Assembly: GCA_052033505.1 (NCBI GenBank)
Contig: JBPOJN010000042.1
Span: forward strand, 12,301-76,300
Direction of reading: 5' to 3'
From: Myxococcota bacterium
Lineage (GTDB): Bacteria; UBA10199; JACPAL01; GCA-016699445
DNA: 64,000 nucleotides
The position numbers were made by a program, and so were the translations under genes. Positions 31,313 to 64,000 of the stretch are shown piece after piece. The notes below the pieces were generated by a model that was given only the letters and a program-made list of their open reading frames with translations, did not search any database and had not been told where the DNA came from. The stretch's first letter is position 1; each line of letters opens with the position of its first letter.

Positions 31313-31476
31313 AAGTTATATTGGATAAAATTTAATCCATAAAGATCCTTTCTTTACAGAATGTAAAAGTTTTTCCTCTAGACCTCCTCTGGGCCACGGG
31401 TCTATAAACGGCCAAATATAAAAGAGAATATCGGACAACGATTTCGGTGAGTTGACGATAAGATAGAAGAAAATTT

Positions 31477-34400
31477 GTGGGCGTCTATAAATTACAAACA
31501 GGATCTTTTTCGAATCCACATCTTGGGGTTGTTCACCAAGCTTTGGTGACGCTTGCGCGAGGTGGTTCTCCTGTGGCGGAGGCGAGAGGAGCCATTGAAC
31601 AACTCTCGTTTTTACCGCGAACCACTCGGGATCAACTGCATCTACTTCTTGACGGCACAAGCAACGCCTCAGATCTCGTGAGAGCTGCGAGGCGTTTGGT
31701 TGCATTGGATAAAAGCAATAGCAGATTTGATCCCCTGCCTATGCTGGATCAACCTAAGCACAAAGCTCATGCGAGCGTCATTAACGTGGACTTAGTTAAC
31801 TCCGGAATCAGAACGCTGGGTGTAGAGGCGTGTTTTGCTGATACGCAAGTCGAAGGTCTTCTTAAAAAACTTGGCCGTATTGTAAAACGTCACGGTGGAG
31901 AAGTGGTGCGATCAACGGGTGATGGATTTGTCGCCCGCATTACGGGGCGGAACAGCGCGCGGCGTGCTGTTCTTGTGGCGGTAGAGATACAAAGCCAATT
32001 GGAGTCGTTGAACAATCGGCTCTATCGGTCCGCGGTTAAGGCGGTCATGCAGAAATATGGACTCACCTCCAAAGAACAATGGAAAGAGTTCGTTCGACAA
32101 GAAGCCGCTCGTGCTCAAATAAGCAGACAAGAAGCCATTCAAAGACTCATAGCTCCCATTGATCCCATTATCAGCAAGGGACCATGGGAAATGCGCGTTG
32201 GTGTCGCAACGGGTTCGATCAGTGAAGCCAGGATTGGCAAAAGAATAAGTATTGCGGGGGATACTACAAGCGCTGCCGAAAGAATGCAGTCAGCGGCAAG
32301 GGATGATGAGGAGACGGGCAAGAAACCAAGCCGAATTTGTATCGACGAAGCCACGATGAATGAGTTGGGTGGTCAATTTGAAACGGTACTCGACTTAGTC
32401 TCCACCAAGGAAAGCCAGCACACTCAGGGGCGCGTCCGGGTTTATTTCGTGACCGGACGTACCGTTTCTCACGACATGGGTCTGCTCGGACGTTCCTCTT
32501 CGGCTCAGATGATGGGCCGGGATGCGGAGAAGCAACAGCTCATCGATTTGATCATGAGAGAAGGCGTTTCGGCAAAAATCGTTTCGTTAGAGGGTGTGAG
32601 TGGGTCGGGTAAAAGCGCGTTGGTCGCTTCCGTGCTGGAGGAAGTGAAGGAAAGCTGCGATTTCATCGTCGGACAGGCGGAGGCTTTTTCTCTCCGCCCT
32701 CTCGGTGCCCTGGTGGACGCTTTGAAAGTCAGAGCCGGAATCCGTGCCGGTGATAAATCCAAAACGATCGCGGAAAAAATCTCTCGTCTCGCAAGCCACG
32801 CTGACACTCAGCGAGATCAGGACGGTCAATCTCGAGAGCAGCAAAGGACTTTCTACGCGCATCTCCTCGGTATTCTTTTCGACGAGCCTCGGAAGGATAT
32901 GCCCGATGAAATCCGTTCTCTCCAAAAAAATCCGGCCGCCTTTAACGCTAAAATGAGGGATATGCTCGCCAGTCTTTTAGGCGGTTTGAGTCGCACTAAA
33001 AACTTGGTTTTAGTCTTTGACGATCTGCAGAAAATCGATCCTTCAAGCTTAAGTCTCGTGGAAAATTTGTTGGCTCATGAATTGAAAGATCGTCCGATTA
33101 CAGTCGTGAAGATGGTGCGGTCCGAAGAAGCTGATCTTCAGAGGGACACTTTGGGATCTACTCTCATTAGGCTGGGAGCGTTAGCTGATCGGCACGTAAT
33201 GGAAATCGCGCAAGGAATTTTGGGAGCCGATTCCTCTGGGGACACCGCTTTCAAGATCACGAAGAAAGCGAATGGTAATCCCGGATTTGCGATCGAGATC
33301 GCGACCGCTGTTAGAAACGGTAGCAGTCTGGATGATATTCCGGGAACGATCCAAGGTATTTTCGAATCCCAATTTGAACGTTTGGCCCAAGAGTCTCCTC
33401 GTGCCATGCAGATCTTAAACCGTGCGGCCATTGTCGGCAGAGAGTTTTCCCTGCAAGACTTGACCGGCATAGGCCTGCCTCTGGCTCTTGTGGAAGAAGC
33501 GATCTCTCGTTTAATGGAGAAGCAGTTGATTGAAGCGACTGGAAACGGGGATTATGTTTTCGTGCAGGACATTATTCGTGAGGCTGTCCTCAAGACGATC
33601 GATCCCGCACAGAAAAGGGATCTTCATGGACGTTATGCGGATTATCTCCAAGGCCCACGGAATGCGGATCCCCGAAAGGATTTCCTAAAGATTGCTGCCC
33701 ATTATGTCCAAGCGGATAAAAATGAATTGGCAGGTATGTATTATTACAGAGAGGCGTCACGCGTTATAGATTTCCGCCCAGATGAAGCTGAGCGTTGTGC
33801 CGAAGAAGCCTTCAATCTGCTTCAAGACAATCTCAAAAAAATTGAAGCTCTATTTGTTTGGGATGAAGCTTTGTTTAAGCAGGGTATGTGTTTGAAGCAG
33901 GTAGCTTTATTGAAAAAATATGCATCCCTGATAAATGATTCAAATAAAAATTTGATTGCTCAGTACAACTTTAGACTAGGCCGCTCTACTTTTTATTCGC
34001 GCAAATCCGATGAAGATGTAACCCAAGCCGAGAAGTTGTATCATGAGGCTCGCAAACTGATAGAAGGCAACCCTTCGGCCTTACGCGCAAAATGTTTAAT
34101 TGAGCTTGGAACTATCTTCACTGATCACAAGAGAGACTATTATAAGGCCAAATATTGGTATGGATTAGCAGTTCAGTCTTTAAGAGAACTTGAGGGGAAT
34201 GACGTTGAAGCGGCTCGCCTGAAGGTGATCGCTCTGTCAAACTTAGTTAATGTTGAATTGAACGTTGGTGTTTATCCTCAAGCAGTTGTCGGGGCTCGGG
34301 AAGCCTTGAGTTTGCTGGAAGCTGGCAGTCGGCCGCGGCTCCAAATTCATTTGTTAAACAATCTTGCGTCGGCTCTTTTTTATCTTGGTAGATACAGCGA

Positions 34401-35085
34401 AGCTAAATTTGAGATCAGTGTAGCTCTAGAATTATCTAGAGCCAATCAAAATTATTACCTCAGTCTTCTTCTTATTAATCAAGCGCGGGTTGCGAGTCTC
34501 ACAGATAAACAGGAAGCGGCCAATTTGTTGAATAGCGCTGTAGCATATGCTGAGGAACGCCTGGTGCATGGGTCTTCCTCAGAATTTGCGACAGGATGCT
34601 TATACAGAGCGTTAGACCACCTTAAAAATGGAGATTTGGTCAAGAGTGAGCAAGATGCTTTCAAAGTTCTTAGTATCGCCAGGGCTCAAGGAAGCGCTGA
34701 TGAAAAATTGGAAGCTATGGCCCATATGGTTTTAGCCCAAGTAAATTTTGGGCGCGAAAATTTTTCTCAGGCTTTAAAACACAGTGAACATTGCATGAAA
34801 GCTTTAAGAAGGTTTGGTATGAAGTTAGAAGAGTTCGATGTGGAAATGTTGTTAGTTCATGCTCAGATTTTGAGGGTCATGAATAATGAAAGTTGGAGAG
34901 AAGTTGTTGGTCAATCTCTCCAAATTTTAGGTGCTCGTCTTGGATCTGATGTGCCTAACTCAGAAGCCGGCCAGGTCGTTGTTTATCAAAAGGTTCTTGA
35001 TCTCGCTAGTCTGGTAGCCGACGAGCAACCCAAGATCACTGAAAGTGGACCTATCGCTTACGAAGCGATGGCTAATGCCGTGTAA
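31477..35085 (+). CDS. class III nucleotidyl-cyclase-like domain / AAA(STAND-type) ATPase / TPR protein
   Basis: Cyclase-like 'VINVDLVNSG' and 'RSTGDGFVARI'. Walker A 'LEGVSGSGKSAL'. 'LVLVFDDLQKID' is Walker-B-like. The C-terminal ~450 aa is TPR-like helical repeats. The GTG start is uncertain. Confidence 0.75.
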   Translation: MGVYKLQTGSFSNPHLGVVHQALVTLARGGSPVAEARGAIEQLSFLPRTTRDQLHLLLDGTSNASDLVRAARRLVALDKSNSRFDPLPMLDQPKHKAHASVINVDLVNSGIRTLGVEACFADTQVEGLLKKLGRIVKRHGGEVVRSTGDGFVARITGRNSARRAVLVAVEIQSQLESLNNRLYRSAVKAVMQKYGLTSKEQWKEFVRQEAARAQISRQEAIQRLIAPIDPIISKGPWEMRVGVATGSISEARIGKRISIAGDTTSAAERMQSAARDDEETGKKPSRICIDEATMNELGGQFETVLDLVSTKESQHTQGRVRVYFVTGRTVSHDMGLLGRSSSAQMMGRDAEKQQLIDLIMREGVSAKIVSLEGVSGSGKSALVASVLEEVKESCDFIVGQAEAFSLRPLGALVDALKVRAGIRAGDKSKTIAEKISRLASHADTQRDQDGQSREQQRTFYAHLLGILFDEPRKDMPDEIRSLQKNPAAFNAKMRDMLASLLGGLSRTKNLVLVFDDLQKIDPSSLSLVENLLAHELKDRPITVVKMVRSEEADLQRDTLGSTLIRLGALADRHVMEIAQGILGADSSGDTAFKITKKANGNPGFAIEIATAVRNGSSLDDIPGTIQGIFESQFERLAQESPRAMQILNRAAIVGREFSLQDLTGIGLPLALVEEAISRLMEKQLIEATGNGDYVFVQDIIREAVLKTIDPAQKRDLHGRYADYLQGPRNADPRKDFLKIAAHYVQADKNELAGMYYYREASRVIDFRPDEAERCAEEAFNLLQDNLKKIEALFVWDEALFKQGMCLKQVALLKKYASLINDSNKNLIAQYNFRLGRSTFYSRKSDEDVTQAEKLYHEARKLIEGNPSALRAKCLIELGTIFTDHKRDYYKAKYWYGLAVQSLRELEGNDVEAARLKVIALSNLVNVELNVGVYPQAVVGAREALSLLEAGSRPRLQIHLLNNLASALFYLGRYSEAKFEISVALELSRANQNYYLSLLLINQARVASLTDKQEAANLLNSAVAYAEERLVHGSSSEFATGCLYRALDHLKNGDLVKSEQDAFKVLSIARAQGSADEKLEAMAHMVLAQVNFGRENFSQALKHSEHCMKALRRFGMKLEEFDVEMLLVHAQILRVMNNESWREVVGQSLQILGARLGSDVPNSEAGQVVVYQKVLDLASLVADEQPKITESGPIAYEAMANAV

Positions 35086-50821: not shown

Positions 50822-51274
50822 TCAATCCAGATTATCGAAGGCCGTGAGAAGCTTCTTGTCCTTCGAACGGAACGTCACGTCGATATTGTAGGGGCGTTTC
50901 GAGATCGCAGGCATTTTCCCGATAAAGGCTTTGCCATCGCTTAACAGATCAAAACTCTTGGATTCCTCCGTCTTGATAATGAATAAAGACGCTTCCGCCT
51001 TCTTCTCGAAATTATCCAACGCAAGCGGCTTCAAATCCGTATCGTACACATACACGCGCACGGTCCCGTCTTCGCTGCGAACGAGTTCGGCCTTGTGGAC
51101 GAGCGCCGCCTTTGCGCCTTTATCCGCTTCCTTATAATCCACGACCGCTGCAATCAGGCCGCCGTATCGTCCCGTATCCGCGAGTTTCGGTCCGTGTCCT
51201 TCGTCATGCGCCTGGGCCGCGTTTGCGTAGCAGAAAGCGGCGAGCAGCATCGCGATTAAGGTTTGTTTTTTCAT
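50822..51274 (-). CDS. periplasmic 150-aa protein, hypothetical (possible metal-binding accessory)
   Basis: Signal peptide ending 'AAQA', then 'HDEGHGPK' and a beta-rich body. ATGA overlap with the RND pump stop, and 3 nt from the OMP gene start. Confidence 0.55.
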   Translation of the reverse strand: MKKQTLIAMLLAAFCYANAAQAHDEGHGPKLADTGRYGGLIAAVVDYKEADKGAKAALVHKAELVRSEDGTVRVYVYDTDLKPLALDNFEKKAEASLFIIKTEESKSFDLLSDGKAFIGKMPAISKRPYNIDVTFRSKDKKLLTAFDNLD

Positions 51275-54200
51275 AACGTATCTCCTTGTGGGTTGAGGGT
51301 TGTTGAAGGTTTCGACTTCTCTAAAGATTTTCCGAATCGGTAAAAAACGGCGGGCGTGACCAAAATATCGAGCAAGGTCGAAGAAATCAGACCGCCGATA
51401 ATCACGACCGCGACGGGATAGAGGATTTCGCGGCCGGGTTCTCCGCGCGAGAGCGCCAAGGGGATCAAGGCTAATATCGCCGAGAGTGATGTCATCAAGA
51501 CCGGTACCAAGCGTTCCAAAGACCCGCGAATGATTGTCTCGATGTTGAACCCCTGTCCTTCTTCTCGCATGAGGTGAAGGTAGTGGCTAATGAGCATGAT
51601 GCCGTTACGCGACGCGATGCCGCAGAGAGTAATGAACGCGATCAGCGTCGCGATCGAAAACACGCGTTCGGTTATATAAATCGCGATCAAGCTTCCGATC
51701 AGCGCGAGAGGCACGTTCAACATGATCTGAAAAGTCACCGCCACGGACCGGAAGTGAAGGAAGAGGACCAAGAAAATCCCCGCCAAGGACAGAAACCCGA
51801 GAAGCGCGATCAATTTCGAAGCCTTCTGCTGGCTCTCGAACTGCCCGCCGTATTTCACGAAATATTTCTCAGGCATCGGGACTTTTTCGGTGATCGTTTT
51901 TTCGATGTCTTTGACCGCGCTTCCCAAATCGCGGCCACGCACATTTGCCGAGACGACGATGCGCCGAAGCCCATCCTCGCGCTGGATCAAGTTAGGTCCC
52001 GTGCTGGGATACAAATCCGCGACCTCTTTCAAGAGCACCGTTTGTCCGGAGGGCAACGTCTTGATCGGCGTGTTTTCGATGGTTTCTTCAGAAGCCCGCG
52101 ACGCGTCGTCGAGTCTCAAAAAAACATCGAACATTCTCTGCTGCTCCAAGACGCTCGCGGCTTCGACCCCGTTTAACGCCGTCTCCAAGTCCTCCGCCAA
52201 GAGTCCCGCGCCGATTCCTCGCTGGGAAGCAGCCTCCCGATTGATCGCAATCTTCATTTGAGGAATCAGAACCAAAGGCTCCGACTGAAGATCGACAAGA
52301 CCGGGTACACCTTCGAGCGCGGTCAACGTCTCGCCGGCCAAGCGTCGTAGTTCGGATAAGTCGGGACCGAAGATTTTGACCGCGATCTGCGCGCGCACAC
52401 CGGAAAGCAAGTGATCCAGGCGGTGACTGATGGGTTGTCCGAGATTGACTGCCACGTCGCCAATGCCGCCGATCTTATCGCGGATCTCTTGTAAGACGAT
52501 CTCATGGTCCCGTCCGCCCTCTTTGAAATCCACGTCGATCTCGTGCCAGTGCACGCCTTCCGCATGCTCGTCCATTTCCGCACGGCCCGTCCTTCGGATC
52601 GTGGATTTTACTTCGGGGATGGAAAGAAGCGCTTCTTCGGCCTTTTTTCCCAACGCATCGGAGGCCGCTAAAGAAATACCTGGTCCCGCCGCGACGCCAA
52701 TCGTCGCCGTGCCTTCATTAAAAGGCGGCAGAAAACTCGTTCCGATAAACGGGAAAGGGATCAAGACCGCAATCAAGAGCAAAGCCGCACCGCCTAAGAC
52801 CAAAACGGGCCTATGAATCGTGCGTTGCAGGAGGTTCCGAACGTGTTTTTTCAGAAATAAAACAATGCGCCCGTCGCCTTTTTCCAAAGCACGCGCCTTT
52901 GGCAGAAAATAGTAACTCAAGACCGGAGTGACCGTAATCGACACCAGAAGCGAGGCGGAAAGTGAAATAATGTAAGCGATGCCTAAAGGAGTAAAGAGTC
53001 TTCCTTCGATGCCGCTTAATGCAAACAAGGGGATAAAGACCAACACGACGATAACCGTCGAAAGCACAATCGAATTCCGGATCTCGGAAGATGCACGGTA
53101 AATCACCTGAAGAACGGATTGAGGATGCGGCGATTTTACGTTCTCTTTGAGCCTGCGGAAAATATTTTCCACATCCACTATCGCATCATCGACCAATTCT
53201 CCGACCGCGATCGCAAGCCCTCCCAAGGTCATGGTGTTCACGCTCAAACCCATCAGCTTAAAGACGATCGCGGTCGCAACGAACGAAAGCGGGATCGCGA
53301 TCAAGGTGATCGCCGTCGTCCGGAAGTTGACCAGGAACAAAAAGAGCACGATCGCGACCATGATCGCGCCGTCGCGCATGGCGGCTTCGACGTTGTGAAT
53401 CGACGTTTCGATGAAACGCGATTGCTTGAAAAGATCGCTTTCGATACGGATGTTCGCAGGCAAAACTTTTTGGAGGCTTTTAAGCTCGGCATCGATACGC
53501 TTGGTGAGTGCCACCGTATCCGCTCCGGGCTGTTTTTGGATCGTCATGACGACCGCGTGCTTCGCGTTGATGCTTCCTTCGCCCCTTTTATTTTTAGGCC
53601 CGATACGCACTTGCGCGATGTCTTTGACCAGGACAGGTTTCCCCAAGTGAAGGCCGACGTAAGAGTTTTCAATGTCTTCGACGGACGCTACGCGGCCCAG
53701 AGGCCGAATTAAAAATTCTTTCTCTCCTACATTAAGAAAGCCGCCCGTAGTGTTCTCGCTGATCTTTGAGAGGACGTGGCGCACTTCCTCTAAGGAGAGT
53801 CCGTGGAACTGCATCTTCTCGCTTGAGAGCAGAATTTGATACTGTTTGACCTCGCCGCCCATCACGACGACCTGGCTGACTCCCGAAATCGTCATGAGTC
53901 GGGGCCGCACGGTCCAATCCGCCAAAGTGCGCAAGTCCATTGGAGAGACCGCTGCATCTTCGCTTGTAAGTCCCACGAATTGGATCTCGCCCATGATCGA
54001 ACTCACCGGGGCGAGCGCGGGAATGACACCGTCAGGCAAGCGTCCAGCCAGGAGTTGAAGGCGTTCGGTTACGAGTTGGCGGTTCTTAAAAATATCCGTG
54101 CCCCACTCGAACTCGGCGTGCACGATCGCGATTCCGATCCCGCTGGAAGATCGCACGCGCGTGACTCCCGGCATTCCGCTCAACACCGATTCGACCGGGA

Positions 54201-54399
54201 TCGTGACCAACGTTTCTACCTCGTCCGGCGCGAGTCCGTGGGATTCGGTAAGCACGGTCACGACCGGACGGTTTAAGTCGGGAAATACATCGACCGGGAG
54301 ACGCGTCACGGTCCAGCCGCCGTAAATCAGCATCGCCGCCGCTGCGATAAGCACGGCCGCTCGATGGTTCAAGGCATACTTCAGTATGGAATTAATCAT
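51271..54399 (-). CDS. heavy-metal-efflux RND pump (CusA/CzcA family)
   Basis: 1042-aa 12-TM RND architecture. 'LGGLAIAVGELVDDAIVDVENIFRRLKEN' matches the HME-RND TM4 signature. Confidence 0.9.
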   Translation of the reverse strand: MINSILKYALNHRAAVLIAAAAMLIYGGWTVTRLPVDVFPDLNRPVVTVLTESHGLAPDEVETLVTIPVESVLSGMPGVTRVRSSSGIGIAIVHAEFEWGTDIFKNRQLVTERLQLLAGRLPDGVIPALAPVSSIMGEIQFVGLTSEDAAVSPMDLRTLADWTVRPRLMTISGVSQVVVMGGEVKQYQILLSSEKMQFHGLSLEEVRHVLSKISENTTGGFLNVGEKEFLIRPLGRVASVEDIENSYVGLHLGKPVLVKDIAQVRIGPKNKRGEGSINAKHAVVMTIQKQPGADTVALTKRIDAELKSLQKVLPANIRIESDLFKQSRFIETSIHNVEAAMRDGAIMVAIVLFLFLVNFRTTAITLIAIPLSFVATAIVFKLMGLSVNTMTLGGLAIAVGELVDDAIVDVENIFRRLKENVKSPHPQSVLQVIYRASSEIRNSIVLSTVIVVLVFIPLFALSGIEGRLFTPLGIAYIISLSASLLVSITVTPVLSYYFLPKARALEKGDGRIVLFLKKHVRNLLQRTIHRPVLVLGGAALLLIAVLIPFPFIGTSFLPPFNEGTATIGVAAGPGISLAASDALGKKAEEALLSIPEVKSTIRRTGRAEMDEHAEGVHWHEIDVDFKEGGRDHEIVLQEIRDKIGGIGDVAVNLGQPISHRLDHLLSGVRAQIAVKIFGPDLSELRRLAGETLTALEGVPGLVDLQSEPLVLIPQMKIAINREAASQRGIGAGLLAEDLETALNGVEAASVLEQQRMFDVFLRLDDASRASEETIENTPIKTLPSGQTVLLKEVADLYPSTGPNLIQREDGLRRIVVSANVRGRDLGSAVKDIEKTITEKVPMPEKYFVKYGGQFESQQKASKLIALLGFLSLAGIFLVLFLHFRSVAVTFQIMLNVPLALIGSLIAIYITERVFSIATLIAFITLCGIASRNGIMLISHYLHLMREEGQGFNIETIIRGSLERLVPVLMTSLSAILALIPLALSRGEPGREILYPVAVVIIGGLISSTLLDILVTPAVFYRFGKSLEKSKPSTTLNPQGDTL

Positions 54400-54482: not shown

Positions 54483-54923
54483 TTAACAAGCAGGCGGGGC
54501 TTTGCTGGGATTGGAACGGAAAAAAGCCCTTAACAATCCTCCCGGAGGGGAGGGGTCTTTCCAAGGGCTGGAAACGATTTGAGGTAACGGCTTTAAAAAA
54601 TACGAAACACTCAAGCGCAAGACTTGGGAGCGGGCTAAGTTTTCAAAATGAACCGAATTCGCGGATAAAATTGCCGTAGGCGCTTGTTCCCAGTGGTACT
54701 CGTGATGGTGATCGTTAACCGGCGTTTCTTTCGAAGAAGGCGTTACGTCGTAGTGATGATCGTCAAAATGAAAATGAGCGCCGGTCCGGGTCGCCTCGGC
54801 GTGATCGTGCGTGTGTAAAATTTTGTAGGCGTGAACGATTGCATGGATCGCGGCTTCGAAATGGGGAATGGAAACGATCGTAAAGAGGACAAGAAACGGA
54901 AAAAGGATCTTTCGGGAAAGCAT
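54483..54923 (-). CDS. His-rich membrane-anchored protein (putative metal-binding)
   Basis: After one N-terminal TM comes 'HAIVHAYKILHTHDHAEATRTGAHFHFDDHHYD...NDHHHEYHW'. I moved the start to the ATG at 54923. Confidence 0.5.
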   Translation of the reverse strand: MLSRKILFPFLVLFTIVSIPHFEAAIHAIVHAYKILHTHDHAEATRTGAHFHFDDHHYDVTPSSKETPVNDHHHEYHWEQAPTAILSANSVHFENLARSQVLRLSVSYFLKPLPQIVSSPWKDPSPPGGLLRAFFRSNPSKAPPAC

Positions 54924-54933
54924 TTTTGGAATG

Positions 54934-55200
54934 CTAATTGGATTTTTCGTTCGAGGCAACCTTTCTATGCCGTTGTTCCTCTGCAGGAGAAGGATCGAGG
55001 AAAGCAAACGCGACGCTTTTCCCGTCGACCTGCGCGTGCTCGATCAAGTACCTGACCTGATTCGCGACCTGCTCCATCAGAATGCAAAGATCCACTATGG
55101 TTTTCTCCTCCGCGTTCCGAGATTTCTTATGCAGCGACCAAAAGACCCCGGCCTCGCGAGTCTCTGGTCTACCGAGTGGTGCGAGCCCGCGAAACTGCAA
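54934..55200 (-). CDS. small ORF, paralog A of the 56899..57168 ORF (probably 5'-truncated by a repeat element)
   Basis: 'GVFWSLHKKSRNAEEKTIVDLCILMEQVANQVRYLIEHAQVDGKSVAFAFLD' aligns with 'GVFWALHSKPQSAEDQTIIDLCIMMEQVANQITYLIEHAKIDGKSVAFALID'. Its N-terminal codons are supplied by the IR element. Confidence 0.4.
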   Translation of the reverse strand: MQFRGLAPLGRPETREAGVFWSLHKKSRNAEEKTIVDLCILMEQVANQVRYLIEHAQVDGKSVAFAFLDPSPAEEQRHRKVASNEKSN

Positions 55201-55218
55201 AACCCGTGACGTCTGCCG
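55149..55218. repeat. inverted repeat, left copy (short form)
   Basis: 'GGCCTCGCGAGTCTCTGGTCTACCGAGTGGTGCGAGCCCGCGAAACTGCAAAACCCGTGACGTCTGCCGG' recurs as a reverse complement at 56325..56493. Confidence 0.85.
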
Positions 55219-55782: not shown

Positions 55783-55926
55783 CTAGTCGAAGGGAATGCG
55801 ATACGTGATGGAGGATGTCTTGCCAGAATTATGCTCCCCGAGTCGTCGGCGTAAGTCGGAAGTGTAGCCGGTATAGAGACTCGGCACCGCCACGAGGCCC
55901 GTAAAAAGAAAAAGCCCGTAGGGCAT
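55783..55926 (-). pseudogene. truncated GIY-YIG (YhbQ/UPF0213-like) nuclease fragment
   Basis: 'SLYTGYTSDLRRRLGEHNSGK' is the GIY-YIG family core. The ORF stops about 40 aa short of a complete domain. Confidence 0.45.
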
Positions 55927-56097
55927 CTTCTGCCTTACGGGCTTTTCGTGGCGTCCCCAACGGGAGTCGCCCTTCGCTAAAAGCAGGTCAATCACGCTCA
56001 GGGCGTCAGCTCTTTCCTGACGCTCGCCGGAAGTGGCTCGCTTCTCCTCCCTCATCGGTCGGCGGAAAGCGCTGTTCGACTCCCGCAGAGGCTGAAA

Positions 56098-56324: not shown

Positions 56325-56493
56325 CCGGCAGACGTCACGGGTTTTGCAGTTCCGAGGTCGCTTCCCGCGACACGGCGCTCGCGGACGCTCGTGAAGGAAG
56401 CCAGTGGCAAGCCACGCGCCCCCGTACACGGGGTCACGCAGCTTGCAGTTTCGCGGGCTCGCACCACTCAGCAGACCAGAGACTCGCGAGGCC
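56325..56493. repeat. inverted repeat, right copy (long form with ~90-nt internal insert)
   Basis: Both ends are the reverse complement of 55149..55218. The extra segment lies between two copies of the 'AACTGCAA' junction. Confidence 0.85.
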
Positions 56494-56592
56494 CGCACCT
56501 CCTTAGCCCCGCCTTAAATCACTGTGCGGGCCGGGGTTTTACGTGGAATTGGGACGAATTATTCAATTTGATGGAGCAATTGAGGGAAGTAG

Positions 56593-56817
56593 CTAATCGA
56601 GATCTTTCAAGAGAGAGGATATTTTTACTCCGAAAGCCTTGGCAAGTCGAAGAGCCGTCGTAAGGCTGATAGGAAGACCTTGTTCGATTCTTTGGTAATG
56701 ACGTGTCGCAAATCCGTGCTGGATCATGTCTTCCTGAGTCCATTCCTTCTTAAGACGCAGCTCTCGGCAGCGAGAGCCTAACTTCTCAAAAAATTTATCG
56801 GATTCCGTCTTCTTCAT
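56593..56817 (-). CDS. XRE-family HTH transcriptional regulator
   Basis: 'LRLKKEWTQEDMIQHGFATRHYQRIEQGLPISLTTALRLAKAFG'. I moved the start to the ATG at 56817. Confidence 0.6.
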   Translation of the reverse strand: MKKTESDKFFEKLGSRCRELRLKKEWTQEDMIQHGFATRHYQRIEQGLPISLTTALRLAKAFGVKISSLLKDLD

Positions 56818-56898
56818 TTGAAAGCGACGGTAGATCCACACGTCTTTCCATACCACGACACAAAAGACGTATTTAAATCTTGAGTAAAATAGGCTTCG

Positions 56899-57168
56899 AT
56901 GCTAAAAACATCATCATCGATGATTTCAACATGCCGTGAACTTGAAGGTGCTTTGGAGGATATTTTGAGACCTGTGCGAGCGGTCGCAGGAGTCTTTTGG
57001 GCTCTCCATTCCAAGCCTCAGAGCGCTGAAGATCAGACTATCATTGATCTTTGCATAATGATGGAACAGGTCGCGAATCAGATTACGTATTTGATAGAGC
57101 ACGCCAAGATTGATGGAAAAAGTGTAGCGTTTGCTTTGATTGACCAAGATTCTGTGAACAGAAACTGA
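56899..57168 (+). CDS. small ORF, paralog B (89 aa), unknown function
   Basis: Shares about 50 aa of clear similarity with ORF 54934..55200. It ends 6 nt before the exonuclease gene. Confidence 0.45.
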   Translation: MLKTSSSMISTCRELEGALEDILRPVRAVAGVFWALHSKPQSAEDQTIIDLCIMMEQVANQITYLIEHAKIDGKSVAFALIDQDSVNRN

Positions 57169-57174
57169 TTTCCA

Positions 57175-57951
57175 ATGACACTCGCACTCACAAAACCTCT
57201 TGCCGTTTTCGACCTGGAAACCACCGGCATCACTCCGGCCACAGATCGCATTGTTTCGATTGGAATCGTAAGGCTTTCCCCTGACGGCCTGGCTGATCTT
57301 TCTAAAGAGTATCTTGTGAACCCGGGCATGCCCATTCCACCCGAAGCCTCCGCGGTTCATAAGATTACGGATGAAATGGTGAGAGATAAGCCGCTCTTCA
57401 AGGATATCGCCTCAGAGATCCTCGATGTGTTTGAAGGATGCGACTTGGCGGGATTCAATATTGAAAAATTCGATCTGCCTTTGCTCTCCCAGGAGTTCGT
57501 CCGGATTGGTATCCCAAATTTCGCATCAGGCCGCAGGATCGTCGATGCCATGGTGATTTTTCACAAGAATGAGCGTCGTGACCTGACAACGGCGGTTCGA
57601 TTCTACCTGGATCGCGATCACGCTAGGGCCCACAGCGCCCTGGCAGACGCGCAAGCGGCATCCGATATCTTATCCGCCCAAATCAAGCGTTACGGCCTTC
57701 CTTCCGCTGTTGAAGATCTCCATAAGTACTGTGCCACGCGTCCCGAGAATTCTATCGACTCCGAAGGCAAATTTGTCTGGAAGGACGGCAAGGCGGTCTT
57801 GTCCTTCGGGAAATGGAAGGGTTTATCGCTGGAAGATTGCATTACACAGAACAAAGACTATTTGGATTGGATTTTGAATAGTGATTTTCCGTCTGATTGT
57901 AAGGAGATTATCAGTCAGGCTCTGATGGGAAAGTTTCCCGAGCCATTGTGA
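57175..57951 (+). CDS. DEDDh 3'-5' exonuclease (DnaQ-like) with DUF3820-like C-terminal domain
   Basis: Exo I 'VFDLETTG', Exo II 'GFNIEKFDLPLL', Exo III 'HSALADAQA'. The C-terminal 'SFGKWKGLSLEDC...DYLDWIL' is DUF3820-like. Confidence 0.85.
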   Translation: MTLALTKPLAVFDLETTGITPATDRIVSIGIVRLSPDGLADLSKEYLVNPGMPIPPEASAVHKITDEMVRDKPLFKDIASEILDVFEGCDLAGFNIEKFDLPLLSQEFVRIGIPNFASGRRIVDAMVIFHKNERRDLTTAVRFYLDRDHARAHSALADAQAASDILSAQIKRYGLPSAVEDLHKYCATRPENSIDSEGKFVWKDGKAVLSFGKWKGLSLEDCITQNKDYLDWILNSDFPSDCKEIISQALMGKFPEPL

Positions 57952-58014
57952 CTGGTTTCCTTACGTTTCCAGACGTCTTAATGAGAGCTAGTTGATATAG
58001 TGTTGAACGTCCTC

Positions 58015-58322
58015 TTGTTTATAATGCGGCATCAACACTAAAAGAGAAATTATTCCAAAGTTCTTCGGGTGAATGGAATTTCCAGGGATCAAAGGAAACA
58101 ACAGGACGATCCTTTTTCTTCGAGGATCGTTCCAATAAAACCTAAAATTGAGGTCTTACCTGTACCCCAACTACCGTATATCCCTATCCGCGACGATGGC
58201 CAAGATGACGCGCCATCAATCAACTCAACAATCTCCTGGGCAAACTGCCATCGTCCCAGGGAATCCTGCATTTTTAATGAAACAGGGTCGTCTGGTGATT
58301 TGTTTTTAACATTATCACTCAT
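58015..58322 (-). pseudogene. KAP-family P-loop NTPase remnant (N-terminal fragment, frameshifted and truncated)
   Basis: 'DSLGRWQFAQEIVELI...RIGIYGSWGTGKTSILGFI' is the KAP N-terminus with its Walker A. A stop comes after 77 aa. 'DPWKFHSPEELWNNF' continues in another frame, then ends. Confidence 0.55.
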
Positions 58323-58360
58323 AAAGTATTACTCCGTCGTTACTTCGTCTGTGTACGTGT

Positions 58361-60865
58361 TCAAAATATCGACCACGGGTCATCTCTTGAGAATGACTGA
58401 TTTTGATTTGCACACAATAATTCAAATTTAAAACCAGCATCAACTACCAGTTGGCGCGCTGTAGTGACAATATTACTGTCATCGTTTTCTATGCAGGCCA
58501 GGAGAATTACATCTGGGCTTACGTCTTCTGCAATTTCAAGAAGGGCTTTGATCTTTTTTTCAGTAAAGCCTGAAGATTTTGATTTTGCTTCCCCCATAAT
58601 GAACATTCCCTCTCGAATGCAGAGAATATCAACTTCAGCGCAAGGATTAGGGTCATCATATTTTTTATATAAGGCAGATTGGGGCACATAATAAAATGTC
58701 TCGAAAGCATGTTCTAAGAGAGTTCCCAAAGCCCACATGTCAGCGAGTATGGAGTCCTTGTACAGCGCATCCAACAACCTCTTATTGATTGAATAATCCC
58801 ACTCAATTCCTTGTGGAGGGATATTCTTTTCTCTTCCACACACTTCGCAGATATTACTTGTTTTAAGGTTGTCAACAGAGCTCCAATTGGTACTCCCACA
58901 CTTCCGACAAGGCCATTCGTAGCCCTGGAAGAAAATTTTTGAAGACACTAATTCTGCTAATGCATCATCAAAATTCTCTGTGATATCTTTCTGGACATCC
59001 TTCGCATTGAACCCTTGGCCAGACTGGGCAGTTTTCTTAAATTTGTTGAAGGATTCAGCTCTCTTTTTCTTCATAACGCTGTAACTGATAATACTTCCGG
59101 GCTGAGGCAAATGATACATTGCCCTCACAATAACCGCTGTGAACTTGTCCCACTCATTCTGGGCTTCTATAACAACCTTTTCGCCTAACTGCTTTTTTAA
59201 AGCCTTCTGGATTCTTTCTGCAAAGGAAGTGTTCTGTTTTAAGTGGTCGTAGTTAGCCGCCTCATTCAAAATATCTCGCCAAAATTTATTAGAAATGAAT
59301 CTATGAGCACGAGCTAACCCTTGAAACATATGAGTCACAGCATGGAGGGAGCGCCCCTTGTCTGATGGTGCTATGACTTCATAGAGGGCTTGCGCATCTT
59401 TGTACCGGAGATCATCTTTCGGGTAATAAGAGGTGCGATAAAAAATGGCGCGGAATAAAACATTGTCGTCGGGAAATCCAATTTCTATAGGCCGCTCACG
59501 CCTATCTTCATTAAAAGGGGCTTCCTGAAAATAGGAATGTAAAACAGAAAGCACGCCATTTCTTCGAATCTTAGAATCTTGTTTGACAAACAATCTGCAT
59601 AGTTCTGATTTTCTGGGTAATAACCACCAATGACGGCCATTAGAATAAACGCAGTGACTCTGATAACGTTCCAGCAAAATATCGACTGCATATCTCCCAG
59701 ACATGAGCTGAGATTGATCTGGCAAAATAGAGTAAAAATGATCTGGTTCTGCAGGATAAAAAGACGAAGGATTTTCAGTGATTCGATCAGTTTGGCGGAA
59801 GTTTTGAGATGGCCTCCTTTCCTGATTAAATTCTTTTGGGATCGGTAGTTGATTTTGCTGCTGCGAGATCTGCAGATAACATTTTTTTTCTCTCAATTTT
59901 TGGATAAACTTTTCCAGGATCTCTCCGTCGAGAGAATAGGAGCGGACAGATACTGATCGTTGTCCTGAGTTCCCAGGAAACTTATACTGATGCTTGTTCA
60001 AATATGTGGCCAAAAGACCTATAAACTCTTCGTCATCTAGTTTTGATGCTGGCACTCGAAGTGTCGTAATGTCTGAATATTTGCTTTCTGAAACGAAGTG
60101 TCTTGAATTCCAAAAATAGAGTCTATCTTCAAAACTGTCTCCCACGACAAGGTTGAGACTTTCGCACCAGTGATAATTATGCTCTGGCACGTCCATTCCA
60201 CAATTTTTATTGGATAGTTGCGCGAGACTAATGATTTCGTTGTTAGTACCTAATCGTTTTAATAAGTCATTCGTTGAATGAAATTTCTCACCGTGCACAA
60301 GCATGCGCGGATTTAAATTTTCCGGTGTCAGGGTTAAGGGAAGATATAAATTCTTTGCCTCCCTATCTTCAGCAGCTCCAAAACTGTCTTTTAGAAATCC
60401 ATCATCTTGCCAGTCATAGTAGGCGCTAATCAAAGATTTAGGTGGTTGCATTTCTTTCTTTAGTGCCGGGAGGATAGAAAGTGCGGTAACGCATTGAAAC
60501 TGGTAATTAGGTTTCGCCCAAGACTTACTCGAATCATCATGGTGGGTTGTGTGTTTTAGAAAAGAAATTGGGCTGGCTCTTTGATCGAGCTCTGTAATCG
60601 TTGAATTGTCTAACTGGGCATAAGAATAGATGATGTCAGGATCATACCAATGAATCCATGCAAGATAATTTTCTTCAATACGTCCATTTTCGACGGGAAC
60701 TAATAAAGTTCGGCACCCAGCCCAGCGTTTATAAGCATCCTCGAAAATCTCGTCAAAGACGTTTGAAGCCTTCGCATTGTTCTCGACCAAAAAAAGAAAC
60801 CGTAAAGGTCTGGCGCGATGTTGAATCGAAATATAGTGATCTAATTTCTTGGGGACGGATTCCAT
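58361..60865 (-). CDS. orphan 834-aa protein with C-terminal zinc ribbon and PD-(D/E)xK-like nuclease motif
   Basis: Uninterrupted 2.5-kb ORF in a markedly AT-richer segment. 'CRKCGSTNWSSVDNLKTSNICEVCG' is CxxC-x17-CxxC. It is followed by 'AEVDILCIREGMFIMGEAKSK', a D...E-x-K layout. I recognise nothing in the first ~650 aa. Confidence 0.7.
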   Translation of the reverse strand: MESVPKKLDHYISIQHRARPLRFLFLVENNAKASNVFDEIFEDAYKRWAGCRTLLVPVENGRIEENYLAWIHWYDPDIIYSYAQLDNSTITELDQRASPISFLKHTTHHDDSSKSWAKPNYQFQCVTALSILPALKKEMQPPKSLISAYYDWQDDGFLKDSFGAAEDREAKNLYLPLTLTPENLNPRMLVHGEKFHSTNDLLKRLGTNNEIISLAQLSNKNCGMDVPEHNYHWCESLNLVVGDSFEDRLYFWNSRHFVSESKYSDITTLRVPASKLDDEEFIGLLATYLNKHQYKFPGNSGQRSVSVRSYSLDGEILEKFIQKLREKKCYLQISQQQNQLPIPKEFNQERRPSQNFRQTDRITENPSSFYPAEPDHFYSILPDQSQLMSGRYAVDILLERYQSHCVYSNGRHWWLLPRKSELCRLFVKQDSKIRRNGVLSVLHSYFQEAPFNEDRRERPIEIGFPDDNVLFRAIFYRTSYYPKDDLRYKDAQALYEVIAPSDKGRSLHAVTHMFQGLARAHRFISNKFWRDILNEAANYDHLKQNTSFAERIQKALKKQLGEKVVIEAQNEWDKFTAVIVRAMYHLPQPGSIISYSVMKKKRAESFNKFKKTAQSGQGFNAKDVQKDITENFDDALAELVSSKIFFQGYEWPCRKCGSTNWSSVDNLKTSNICEVCGREKNIPPQGIEWDYSINKRLLDALYKDSILADMWALGTLLEHAFETFYYVPQSALYKKYDDPNPCAEVDILCIREGMFIMGEAKSKSSGFTEKKIKALLEIAEDVSPDVILLACIENDDSNIVTTARQLVVDAGFKFELLCANQNQSFSRDDPWSIF

Positions 60866-60947
60866 GCTTTTACTCCTGATCCTCTTCTAAAGCTTTTTCT
60901 GCGCTAGGCACGACCTACTCATTCGGGACCCCCTGTATCAGCAGGTT

Positions 60948-63512
60948 TCACTCCCTCGCTACCACAGTGTCATACAGCCCGTAATGGGTTAGCCCCTCGT
61001 GGCTTTCGATCCCTGTGTAGCGGAGTGAGGCGTCTTCGTAGCGGCGGAAGGCGCAGACGGCCTGATTCATCTGCTCGGTGTTGAACACCTTGAGTCGCAC
61101 GAGCAAGTGGAAATCATTTACCGTCAGACCAGTGACAGTCTCGAACAGGGCCGGCTCGATCTTGGTGATAACGTCTTGCAGCGTGTTCTCTCGAAAATCG
61201 GTCAGATACATGAATGCCGGAATGCGTGTCGCGAACTTGATGAGCTTCTCCTGCACGAGTTTTCGTTTGGACTTGAACTCCTTCTCCTCGTCGGTGAGCT
61301 GCCTCTTCTCTTTCGCCGACAAGTCCTTGTCCTTCGCCTTATTCTTAAGTTCTTTAACCTTCTCACTTTTGTTGATGATGGTTTCGATGATGTTGTCGCC
61401 GAGCGAGCGCCAGCCTTCGATGCGCTCCACGGCAGCCATCGCTTCGGGATTGTCCAGGATACGGCGGAGGGTATCATTATCTACGTTTACGAGCAGCGCG
61501 CTCTCCCACTTGCGCGCCAGCAGCGTGGCCGAGGTTCCGGCCATCGCGATGTCGAGTATGTGCCCCGCATCAATCTGAGTCATGTTCGCGCCATCGTAGG
61601 CCAGCACAGGCAGGAACGACACAAGGTCCTTGACCGCGTTCTCCGGGTTTGGCTCGTTGGGCGATAACCCGATCCCGTATTCGGAGAGTTGCCGCAGCGC
61701 GCGCGTGGGCGCGAAGTCGAACACGAAGCAGACCGGCTTGAGGATCTCCTCCGCGTTGGGGTCATCGCCGTGGGGGTTCTTGATCGACCACGGTGACTGC
61801 ACGCGAAACGCCGCCTGGAAGTAGGTCTCCGGCGATTTCAGGCTGCGCAGCATCAGGATCGACGACCACTGCGGTACAGTGATACCGGTGGTGAGCTTGC
61901 CGCACGAGAGCGTCATGGTCTTGGTGTCGAAGCCGCTGCCGATGGCCTGGCGCACGGGCGGCAGCGCCTCCAATCCGATGCCCGCCGAGGCACCGGCGGC
62001 CACCGTCACCTTATAGTCGTGCCAAAATACGTTGTGCTTTTCGGCCAGCAGGTTCGCCATCGCATGACAGGCCGCGACGTTGGGCAGGAACCAGAACGAG
62101 TGTTGTAGATACGGTAACAGGCGCGAGTCCGAATACGGAAACGGAGGCCTGGTGCCGGTCTTGAGATGCTCCACCGCCTTGGGCGCATACCCGCCGCGGA
62201 TGATGTCCAGCCATTTCTGCACATCGCTCTTGTGCTTGAACTGCGCCTTATCGCCCGTGCCCGAGGCCTCGAAGAAGGCGTTCAGGTCGAACTCGTCGAA
62301 CTCACCGGCGCTCGCTATCGCCACCAGCTCGTCTGGCATCTGATAGGTGAGCAGCCGCATCTGCGGCAGCGCGCCGTAGGGGTTCCACTTGCCGGGATAC
62401 TTCCTCGTGAACTCTTCCTTGGCGCGCTGCTCGTCGGTGTAAGTCCAGTTAAAGATTGCTTCTTCGATGAACTCGCCCGTGGCCAGCGCCTTGAACGGCG
62501 TGCCGGAGAGGTAAAGGTAGGCCTTTGAGGTAATGGGCAGGAATTCAATCTCTTTCTCCGAGAGTTCGCTAAGGCCCTCGTTCACTCCTTCCAAGCCGGT
62601 GGCATATTCGAGCTTGGCCTCCTTCTTGGCGACTGCCTCTTCCTCGCCCTCGAACAGTTCCTTGGCGGTGTCGCGCCACGCGCCAAAGTGGTATTCGTCG
62701 AAGACGACCAAATCCCACTTCACCGAGCGTAGCCAAGTGTGCCTTGGCTTAATGTTCCCCGCGTCGTCGCGACCCAGCAAGTCTTGAAACGAGCCGAAAT
62801 AGACAACCGGCTTTCTTTGGTCAACTTTCGTCGGGTCGCTACCGGATGAGCGGGAGAGGTATTGCCACCCATCGAAGTCGAAATGGGATTCGAGATCTGT
62901 CTGCCACGCATCCTCGACGGCAGGCTTAAAAGTCACCACTAGGACTCGCTTGGCACCGATCTTCTTCGCCAACTGATAGGCAGTGAAGGTCTTGCCGAAA
63001 CGCATCTTCGCGTTCCACAGGAAGCGCGGGACGGCTTTCTTATTCTCAGACCAGATCGATTTGAAGTAGTCGAAAGTCTTTTCAACAGCCTCGATCTGTT
63101 CCCGCCGCATTGCAAACGTCTCGTGGTGCGTGCCGCTGAACTTCTGACCGGTGCGCAGCTCAATGAGGACGGTTTTCACGTCCTTGAGCGTACAGCGCAT
63201 CCACTCCAACTCGACTTTCTCAAAGTCCTTCTTAACCAGCGCCTCACGCACGTCGTGGTCGGTGAAGATCGTGCCGTCGTCGCGCTCGGCCGACTCGTCG
63301 AGTTCGATCTTATAGTTCTTGATCGCGGCGGTCTTCAGCTGCTCGGCGACGCGTTGTTTCACGTCGCGCGCGGTCTGCCCCACCTTGAGGAGACCTGCGT
63401 GTGCCTTGTCCGCAATGGCGTAGGCGTAGATGCGCGGCCGGGCTTCCGGCTTGGGCTCCAGGATTTCTTCTATGGGTTTACTCATCGTCACTGGCTTCTG
63501 TGGTGTCGCCAT
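60948..63512 (-). CDS. SF2 (DExH) helicase/restriction-type ATPase with N-terminal T5orf172/GIY-YIG-like domain
   Basis: N-terminus 'RIYAYAI...GLLKVGQTARDVKQRVAEQL...ELEWMRC' is T5orf172/MUG113-like. Motif I is 'NAKMRFGKTFTA', motif II is 'LVVFDEYHFG', and 'LSGTPF' is also present. The start is ATG 63512 or ATG 63485; both overlap the end of the upstream MTase-like gene. Confidence 0.75.
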   Translation of the reverse strand: MATPQKPVTMSKPIEEILEPKPEARPRIYAYAIADKAHAGLLKVGQTARDVKQRVAEQLKTAAIKNYKIELDESAERDDGTIFTDHDVREALVKKDFEKVELEWMRCTLKDVKTVLIELRTGQKFSGTHHETFAMRREQIEAVEKTFDYFKSIWSENKKAVPRFLWNAKMRFGKTFTAYQLAKKIGAKRVLVVTFKPAVEDAWQTDLESHFDFDGWQYLSRSSGSDPTKVDQRKPVVYFGSFQDLLGRDDAGNIKPRHTWLRSVKWDLVVFDEYHFGAWRDTAKELFEGEEEAVAKKEAKLEYATGLEGVNEGLSELSEKEIEFLPITSKAYLYLSGTPFKALATGEFIEEAIFNWTYTDEQRAKEEFTRKYPGKWNPYGALPQMRLLTYQMPDELVAIASAGEFDEFDLNAFFEASGTGDKAQFKHKSDVQKWLDIIRGGYAPKAVEHLKTGTRPPFPYSDSRLLPYLQHSFWFLPNVAACHAMANLLAEKHNVFWHDYKVTVAAGASAGIGLEALPPVRQAIGSGFDTKTMTLSCGKLTTGITVPQWSSILMLRSLKSPETYFQAAFRVQSPWSIKNPHGDDPNAEEILKPVCFVFDFAPTRALRQLSEYGIGLSPNEPNPENAVKDLVSFLPVLAYDGANMTQIDAGHILDIAMAGTSATLLARKWESALLVNVDNDTLRRILDNPEAMAAVERIEGWRSLGDNIIETIINKSEKVKELKNKAKDKDLSAKEKRQLTDEEKEFKSKRKLVQEKLIKFATRIPAFMYLTDFRENTLQDVITKIEPALFETVTGLTVNDFHLLVRLKVFNTEQMNQAVCAFRRYEDASLRYTGIESHEGLTHYGLYDTVVARE

Positions 63513-64000
63513 CGAGAAGCTCTCTCTGGTGCTCGGCTACTTGCGCCTCGATAAATGCGATTTCACTTTTAGTCAGCCCGTATCGCTTGTAGAGCTTCGC
63601 GTCGGTCCACTCTTGCTCTAACGGCAAATCAGGCACAAAGGAATACACGTCGCGCGTCGCGTGCTGCGTGGCTTTGCGAAGCGAGACCAAGAAACGAACG
63701 AACCGGGTGCGCAGATACTTCGCGTAGCTGGCCGCCTCTCCCTCATTGTCGAAGTGCCCGGCAACGAGGTAGGTCTCGGTGCATGCAGTGCCCGGCTCGG
63801 CAACGATTGGTTTGCTCAGGAACTTGGTTTCAATCGCCGCGCTTGTGCCCTGCACGGCAGTCATGAGCACTTTCCACTCGTCAATCCACTCGGGGTTGAC
63901 CGTAATTGCCTTTCGCTCCATCCAGCCAACCCGCTGGTTCTCGAAGAGCTTCACCGGCATCTTCAATCCCGCCGCCGACGGCTTGCTCTTAAAGTTCGTG
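63478..64000 (-). CDS. C-terminal part of an Eco57I/TaqI-C-type N6-adenine DNA methyltransferase-like protein; 5' end lies outside the window
   Basis: The frame is open to nt 64000. 'YLVAGHFDNEGEAASYAKYLRTRFVRFLVSL' and the terminal 'WTDAKLYKRYGLTKSEIAFIEAQV' resemble the C-terminal target-recognition/tail region of type IIG/Eco57I-like methylases. The catalytic motifs are not in the window. Confidence 0.5.
   Translation of the reverse strand, partial: TNFKSKPSAAGLKMPVKLFENQRVGWMERKAITVNPEWIDEWKVLMTAVQGTSAAIETKFLSKPIVAEPGTACTETYLVAGHFDNEGEAASYAKYLRTRFVRFLVSLRKATQHATRDVYSFVPDLPLEQEWTDAKLYKRYGLTKSEIAFIEAQVAEHQRELLDGDTTEASDDE

Follow-up and report, generated by a model that had tools for sequence, protein, structure and literature searches.

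What is encoded by an AT-rich gene that stands between a restriction-modification (RM)-like module and the debris of other defence genes in a myxococcotal genome, and does it belong with either of them? The gene, which specifies a protein of 834 amino acids (aa), lies in a stretch of 64,000 nucleotides (nt) from a Myxococcota bacterium (assembly GCA_052033505.1, contig JBPOJN010000042.1, positions 12,301 to 76,300), here called the window, to which all nt coordinates refer unless a locus is named. An initial annotation had proposed the gene as a candidate for an undescribed defence or nuclease system. Its novelty held up and a nuclease is very likely, while a role in defence is only plausible, as set out below.

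The predicted nuclease lies in the C-terminal quarter of the protein. An AlphaFold2 model built from an alignment of 57 sequences (about 25% mean identity to the window protein) was confident (predicted local distance difference test, pLDDT, 90.6; predicted template modelling score, pTM, 0.88), an earlier model from six sequences having been poor (pLDDT 59.3). Residues 645-693 form a four-stranded ribbon in the model, with cysteines C653, C656, C673 and C676 in the pairs CRKC (aa 653-656) and CEVC (aa 673-676); the CxxC ribbon of the initial annotation is thus present, at nt 58832-58912, but its spacer is of 16 residues rather than 17. Beyond it, over residues 694-820, the model has the alpha-beta-beta-beta-alpha-beta core of a nuclease (helix 707-719, strands 724-733, 743-751 and 754-763, helix 769-782, strand 786-793). 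The stretch EVDILCIREGMFIMGEAKSK, in which a D...ExK arrangement had been noticed, was found to start at aa 744 (nt 58577-58636) and holds the motif E744-x-D746...E759-x-K761; E744 and D746 lie on strand 2, which D746 opens, and E759-x-K761 on strand 3, the canonical layout of restriction endonucleases. Conservation was counted in 141 family representatives of at least 690 aa: the four cysteines are kept in 136-139 of the 141, D746 in all 135 that align there, E759 in 133 of 134 and K761 in 126 of 134, and E744 is always E or D. The four cysteines, D746 and E759 are likewise invariant in the 57-sequence alignment, with K761 in at least 90%. Because they are near-invariant among the 141 representatives, neither the zinc-ribbon nor the D/E/K motif is a product of chance. 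Known zinc fingers gave weak, non-significant matches (TRABID NZF, E 0.084; Pfam zinc ribbons, E of at least 0.01). RanBP2/NZF fingers have the consensus W-x-C-x2-4-C-x3-N-x6-C-x2-C; an assignment to this type was rejected, as W-x-C-x2-C-x3-N is present but followed by a spacer of 12 residues instead of 6, and there is no Pfam zf-RanBP match.

Structure comparison points the same way. The top four Foldseek matches in the PDB were all Can2-family nucleases (probability 0.91-0.99), among them Can2 (8bao, 0.99), VC1899 (1xmx) and Cdn1 (9u49), with EcoT38I and Can1 lower down, and the viral library yielded a "restriction endonuclease" (probability 1.0) and PD-(D/E)XK proteins. Probabilities for the Can2-family, EcoT38I and viral restriction endonuclease matches ranged from 0.84 to 1.0, and no Foldseek match reached E ≤ 1e-3. 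By sequence, Pfam NERD (PF08378), one of the families suggested for comparison by the initial annotation, matches 4 of the 57 relatives (best 4.8e-5) and not the window protein (no match at E ≤ 0.1); the PADLOC hidden Markov models (HMMs) CARF_PDDEXK, Can1 and Csx1 weakly match a few relatives. It is the fold, the position of the motif and its invariance together that carry the assignment, the sequence matches being weak but consistent. With the motifs invariant and the fold matching Can2-family and restriction nucleases, the zinc ribbon and PD-(D/E)xK (restriction-endonuclease-like) C-terminus of the initial annotation are borne out, and the 834-aa protein is, judging from the model, very probably an active PD-(D/E)xK nuclease. 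It is predicted to be metal-dependent and likely cuts DNA or RNA.

The protein had also been taken for an orphan, which it is not. A word-indexed homologue search returned only five relatives, and a 57-sequence profile led back to the same six proteins, a misleadingly low count; an exhaustive HMMER search of 1.84 billion cluster representatives, with an alignment of those five relatives as query, found 2,791 relatives at E ≤ 1e-3, 1,533 at E ≤ 1e-10 and 614 at E ≤ 1e-30. Of the best 150, most are 800-870 aa long and align over their whole length. A search that started from a Bradyrhizobium member listed 119 relatives, all named "hypothetical protein", without a Pfam domain and in clusters of 1-8 sequences, and the 90%-identity clusters of the family are all tiny. 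Species-representative genomes held 15 loci with the family, in Alpha-, Beta-, Gamma- and Deltaproteobacteria, Holosporales endosymbionts and one Dehalococcoidales genome; phage records contained no relative and IMG/VR one locus. The window protein matched nothing significantly in Pfam, NCBIfam, PADLOC, PHROGs or PDB sequences, a full-length profile had only insignificant matches in the PDB, and the literature searched describes neither the family nor the adjacent methylase/helicase module. The N-terminal 640 aa and the overall architecture are therefore undescribed in the libraries and papers searched, as had been claimed, and the nuclease end is of a known kind. Thousands of distinct members, in Proteobacteria and at least one Chloroflexi genome, thus lack a name, a domain model and a structure over three-quarters of their length, and the same family ends in what is clearly predicted to be a catalytic nuclease, often amid defence and mobile genes.

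For the first ~650 aa the initial annotation had recognised no domain and no P-loop. A Walker A motif is indeed absent, and the N-terminal ~640 aa have no significant relative, by sequence in Pfam, NCBIfam, PADLOC, PHROG and PDB (where a profile of the N-terminal 236 aa likewise found none) or by fold in Foldseek searches with the confident full-length model. The structure prediction that had been recommended for this region gave a confident model of four domains, two Rossmann-like, one beta-rich and one helical (Table 1), and no significant fold match; a beta hairpin precedes aa 21 and a less regular segment separates the two Rossmann-like domains. R19, G50, D75, D77, G163, W252, N253, W414 and P417 are invariant or nearly so in both the 57- and the 141-sequence sets, and nowhere in the protein is conservation higher than in the first Rossmann-like domain (mean top-residue frequency 0.50, against 0.43 in the nuclease). 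The "variable sensor-like N-terminus" of the initial annotation is contradicted by this; such conservation agrees better with a fixed site for ligand binding or catalysis than with a protein sensor under rapid evolution. Fold matches to adenylate-forming enzymes, periplasmic binding proteins and glycosyltransferase-like proteins were set aside as generic alpha/beta similarity (probability at most ~0.3, template modelling (TM) score at most ~0.2), and matches to carbamoyltransferases scored as low. An ANL adenylate-forming enzyme was rejected specifically, the motif [ST][ST]G[ST][ST]GxPK being absent from all 141 representatives (Foldseek probability ~0.1-0.2, TM 0.14-0.17), as was a Toprim or CheY-like reading of the DPD motif, whose acidic residues precede strand 3, with no conserved Glu after strand 1. 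Even if the gene is not a defence gene, its conserved N-terminal module would be a new domain set, probably with a ligand-binding or enzymatic function.

Does the gene belong with its neighbours? Its GC content is 40.9% (39% at third codon positions, GC3), compared with 58.2% (GC3 78%) for the helicase gene (60948-63512) that lies 82 nt upstream and a window mean of 52%. The difference of 17 GC points from the helicase agrees with the contrast of ~40% and upper-50s estimated by eye. A GC profile in 150-nt steps delimits a low-GC block from ~57850 to 60850, with a sharp edge in the 82-nt spacer before the helicase. Two plasmid copies of the methylase/helicase module were examined, from Sphingopyxis (83% identical) and Rhizobium (81%), and in both the helicase is followed by a gene without relation to the 834-aa family. 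Because of this and the GC break, the 834-aa gene is an insertion separate from the module, in line with the separate acquisition suspected at the outset. Among the relatives, too, GC is usually below that of their own flanks, and three copies (L020-L022) are broken. The neighbours of 26 non-redundant loci (295 open reading frames, ORFs, within 6 kb) were compared all against all, and since no neighbour family occurs in more than two of these loci, the gene is a stand-alone one without a conserved partner gene. It is a horizontally moving accessory gene.

On the downstream side, 38 nt away, a KAP P-loop NTPase pseudogene consists of a 77-aa ORF with GSWGTGKTS, a frameshift, after which the next frame reads FDPWKFHSPEELW..., and then a truncation. 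This remnant lies with the 834-aa gene in a common low-GC block of ~3 kb, and probably arrived together with it. The placement of the gene between an RM-like module and defence debris was accurate: the methylase and helicase are upstream, and the KAP remnant, a GIY-YIG fragment and a helix-turn-helix (HTH) ORF downstream.

What, then, might such a nuclease be for? The explanation that we favour, tentatively and at a little less than even confidence, is a defence or conflict nuclease made by one gene and gated by its own conserved N-terminal module. The 640-aa module would recognise a cue (small ligand, modified nucleic acid or invader component) and could gate the nuclease by controlling how nuclease domains pair, in the manner of ligand binding in Can2-family enzymes; the protein would then act alone, as a defence or conflict nuclease directed at phages or plasmids. 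This explanation is supported by signs of a mobile, accessory gene (the low GC relative to its neighbour, the tiny clusters, the broken copies, and the Burkholderia and Piscirickettsia plasmid copies near recombinases and toxin-antitoxin genes) and by the defence neighbourhoods in which members are found: the RM-like module of the window, AbiEi/AbiEii, HsdR with YgjP, TIR/PDC-S73, Mrr/KAP/PLD/PDDEXK_4, and MmeI-like/DEAD/T5orf172. If it is a defence gene, it would represent a new sensor architecture in the "sensor plus PD-(D/E)xK" class, one that current annotation tools would miss. A bolder form, which we regard as possible but somewhat doubtful, is a new and widespread one-gene immune system in which the so far unseen module of ~640 aa, with R19, D75/D77, W252/N253 and W414 as its named invariant residues, senses an invader-derived ligand or modified nucleic acid and switches a Can2-like nuclease without a CRISPR or cyclase partner.

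Several observations weigh against a defence nuclease of this kind. No defence HMM matches, the window protein itself has no Pfam match to known nucleases, and a profile of the nuclease domain found only VC1899 among PDB sequences, at an insignificant E of 1.4. The N-terminus is strongly conserved and not diversifying, unlike many phage sensors, and across the 26 loci neither a cyclase nor type III CRISPR genes nor any other signal-making partner recurs beside the gene. As to the enrichment near defence genes that was to be expected of homologs, defence or mobile-element genes stand beside about 12 of 18 annotated loci, a raw count without a background rate from which enrichment is not demonstrated, and four are plainly and purely housekeeping; the defence-island association is thus partial, and suggestive.

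Those four loci lead to the rival that survives best, although we consider it unlikely: a housekeeping or stress enzyme acting on nucleic acids, in DNA repair or RNA processing, with the N-terminus as a second catalytic or substrate-binding module. A catalytic N-terminus would agree with the N-terminal domain being the most conserved and with its invariant polar residues R19, D75, D77 and N253, and ordinary cellular work with the housekeeping surroundings (thiolase, HisRS and AspRS at one locus; GlnRS 40 nt upstream at another; a two-component system), the copies in Holosporales endosymbionts and the SRAP, UvrD and ribonucleotide reductase genes near some copies. Such an enzyme is hard to square with a patchy distribution in tiny clusters, a GC content under that of the host flanks, copies on plasmids and in islands, pseudogenised copies and the lack of conserved synteny.

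Less probable again is a selfish or addiction nuclease toxin of mobile elements, which would stabilise the element instead of defending the host, under the control of either a small regulator encoded upstream or the N-terminus of the protein itself. A small HTH_3 gene does lie 40 nt upstream of one relative, the Burkholderia plasmid copy has an HTH-like gene of 174 aa in front of it, which in turn follows three tyrosine recombinases, and toxin-antitoxin genes stand beside both plasmid copies; yet a conserved small partner gene is lacking, there is none in the mere 82-nt spacer between the window copy and the helicase, and many copies lie off recognisable mobile elements.

That the protein is a third component or an optional accessory of the adjacent methylase/helicase module, as the initial annotation had offered as an alternative, is the least credible of these readings, and an obligate role is largely refuted: the shared strand, the 82-nt gap and the lack of a predicted promoter of its own (the minus strand of the spacer showed no sigma-70-like promoter in a simple scan), together with one relative (L032) placed immediately downstream of genes for an MmeI-like enzyme, a DEAD helicase and a T5orf172 protein and another following HsdR-YgjP at a gap of 3 nt, stand against the sharp GC break at the junction, the two examined plasmid modules (of eight listed) that lack the gene downstream, the absence of any neighbour recurring in more than two of the 26 loci, and the fact that the L032 helicase and T5orf172 proteins, an analogous but non-homologous arrangement, have no detectable relation to the window helicase. 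We read L032 and the window as probable cases of repeated landing beside restriction-like modules, not as a conserved system.

The methylase/helicase unit is itself a very mobile RM-like module, because helicases 77-83% identical to that of the window occur on plasmids of six genera (Burkholderia, Sphingopyxis, Rhizobium, Pseudosulfitobacter, Acuticoccus and Deinococcus; eight plasmids listed). Its Eco57I-type methylase tail is 42% identical to a plasmid homologue (E 5e-32), and the T5orf172+ResIII helicase partially matches a PADLOC type IIG model. In the plasmid versions of the module the methylase is split into two genes.

Some further observations concern the loci of relatives (Table 1). 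SRAP genes adjoin two of them (L010, 2297-2962, and L032, 13176-13838), which BLAST clustering did not link; the one in L010 shares 11 nt with the beginning of the family gene. The Caulobacter relative has a full-length KAP NTPase 4 kb away. At L017 an 828-aa upstream neighbour, considered as a paralogue, proved to be a ribonucleotide reductase. Two of the broken copies, L020 and L022, from deltaproteobacterial metagenome-assembled genomes, are degraded into 2-3 ORFs and are syntenic, with four neighbour families in common, which suggests an inherited copy that is decaying in that lineage.

No CRISPR-like array was found in the window. Elsewhere in it, inverted repeat arms at 55001-55210 and 56433-57137 (76-90% complementary) flank the GIY-YIG fragment (55783-56055) and the HTH_3 ORF (56593-56856), and each arm carries a copy of an ~88-aa ORF without a Pfam match (54934-55200, minus strand; 56899-57168, plus strand); the segment between them could be invertible or rearranged. 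An intact DEDDh (DnaQ-like) exonuclease with an ExoX-like C-terminus (57175-57951, plus strand) matches the PADLOC candidate PDC-S48 (9e-32). At 28028-35085 (plus strand) lies a protein of 1,094 aa that contains a Ser/Thr kinase domain, and after it an ORF of 1,202 aa without a relative among PDB sequences; GC falls to 45-49% over ~32-38 kb of the window; this pair may be another acquired conflict system. Just upstream of the gene for a resistance-nodulation-division (RND) efflux pump (51271-54399) lies a histidine-rich ORF of 174 aa (54483-55007, minus strand), whose product may bind metal as the partner of a heavy-metal efflux system.

Table 1. Features of the 834-aa gene and its window neighbours (window coordinates), and genes found beside relatives (by locus).
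Feature	Location	Strand	Basis or remark
Intact gene of 834 aa, full-length member of an unnamed family of ~850-aa proteins	58361..60865	-	ATG start; aligns end to end with the family profile; all conserved residues kept
Ribosome-binding site AGGAG, 7 nt 5' of the ATG	60873..60877	-	Read from sequence
First Rossmann-like beta-alpha domain, aa 21-105	60551..60805	-	Model; conservation; R19, W48/G50 (RWGG), D75-P-D77 (YDPD)
Second Rossmann-like domain, aa 236-336	59858..60160	-	Model; GDSxxDRLxFWNxR motif (D247, W252, N253)
Beta-rich domain, aa 337-500	59366..59857	-	Model; G390-x-W...D395, W414-x-L-P417-R-R
Helical domain, aa 501-641	58943..59365	-	Model; SDKGR and FWR motifs; site of the family's main insertions/deletions
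Four-cysteine zinc ribbon W-x-C-x2-C-x3-N-W-x11-C-x2-C, aa 642-693	58787..58942	-	Motif, conservation, model
PD-(D/E)xK (restriction-endonuclease-like) domain, aa 694-834	58364..58786	-	Model, Foldseek, motif
KAP P-loop NTPase pseudogene	58020..58322	-	Pfam KAP_NTPase 3.2e-7
RM-like module, neighbour outside the unit: Eco57I-type methylase tail and T5orf172/ResIII helicase	60948..64000	-	Pfam/PADLOC, plasmid homologues
RM-like module, KAP NTPase remnant	window locus		
AbiEi/AbiEii and transposase-like genes	L002		
VMAP-C and MoxR-type ATPase	L003		
TIR protein matching PDC-S73	L010		
Integrase	L013		
Type I HsdR and YgjP, 3-nt gap to relative	L014		Assigned from ORF sizes, tight same-strand packing and pooled neighbour scans
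1,749-aa protein with SduA-like segment	L017		
Recombinase trio, MazEF, IS66	L023 (Burkholderia plasmid)		
RelE toxin-antitoxin pair, Fic, recombinase	L024 (Piscirickettsia plasmid)		
PLD, Mrr, resolvase, KAP NTPase, PDDEXK_4	L028 (Caulobacter relative)		
ParB_N; Mrr at locus edge	L031		
MmeI-like enzyme, DEAD helicase, T5orf172 protein	L032		Directly upstream, same strand

How does the 834-aa protein compare with systems already known? Type IV (modification-dependent) enzymes such as Mrr resemble it in standing alone, without a cognate methylase, and in joining a PD-(D/E)xK domain to a separate recognition region; the family differs in that neither a known reader domain for modified bases nor a match to Mrr_cat was detected, and Mrr_cat genes are its neighbours in two loci. 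Shedu (SduA), with which the initial annotation had compared it, is likewise a single protein, found in defence islands, in which a PD-(D/E)xK nuclease at the C-terminus follows a larger N-terminal region. Membership of Shedu is not supported, there being no DUF4263/SduA match in the window protein or in the 57 relatives, and the N-terminus of the 834-aa family is conserved, not variable. By the model, its nuclease domain appears structurally closest to Can2/Card1-type and NERD-type nucleases. NERD proteins often carry fused zinc fingers and occur in defence contexts; they have the same PD-(D/E)xK core with D...ExK, but lack the 640-aa N-terminal module. NERD has been reported as an effector in defence (bioRxiv 10.1101/2024.01.29.577857). 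The best structural match to the nuclease domain is the Can2/Card1/Cdn1 group (DUF1887; VC1899), ancillary nucleases of type III CRISPR systems that combine CARF and PD-(D/E)xK domains, along with Can1 (6sce), a related CARF-nuclease fusion. No CARF domain was matched in the window protein by Pfam or PADLOC, although its Rossmann-like domains may have a remote CARF-like fold. The architecture and activation of the Can2 family have been described (PMC12825302), and the likeness, which is limited to the nuclease domain and the general logic, consists in an N-terminal Rossmann-type module followed by a C-terminal nuclease. Compared with Can2, the 834-aa protein is more than twice as long, and places a zinc ribbon and a helical domain between its N-terminus and the nuclease.

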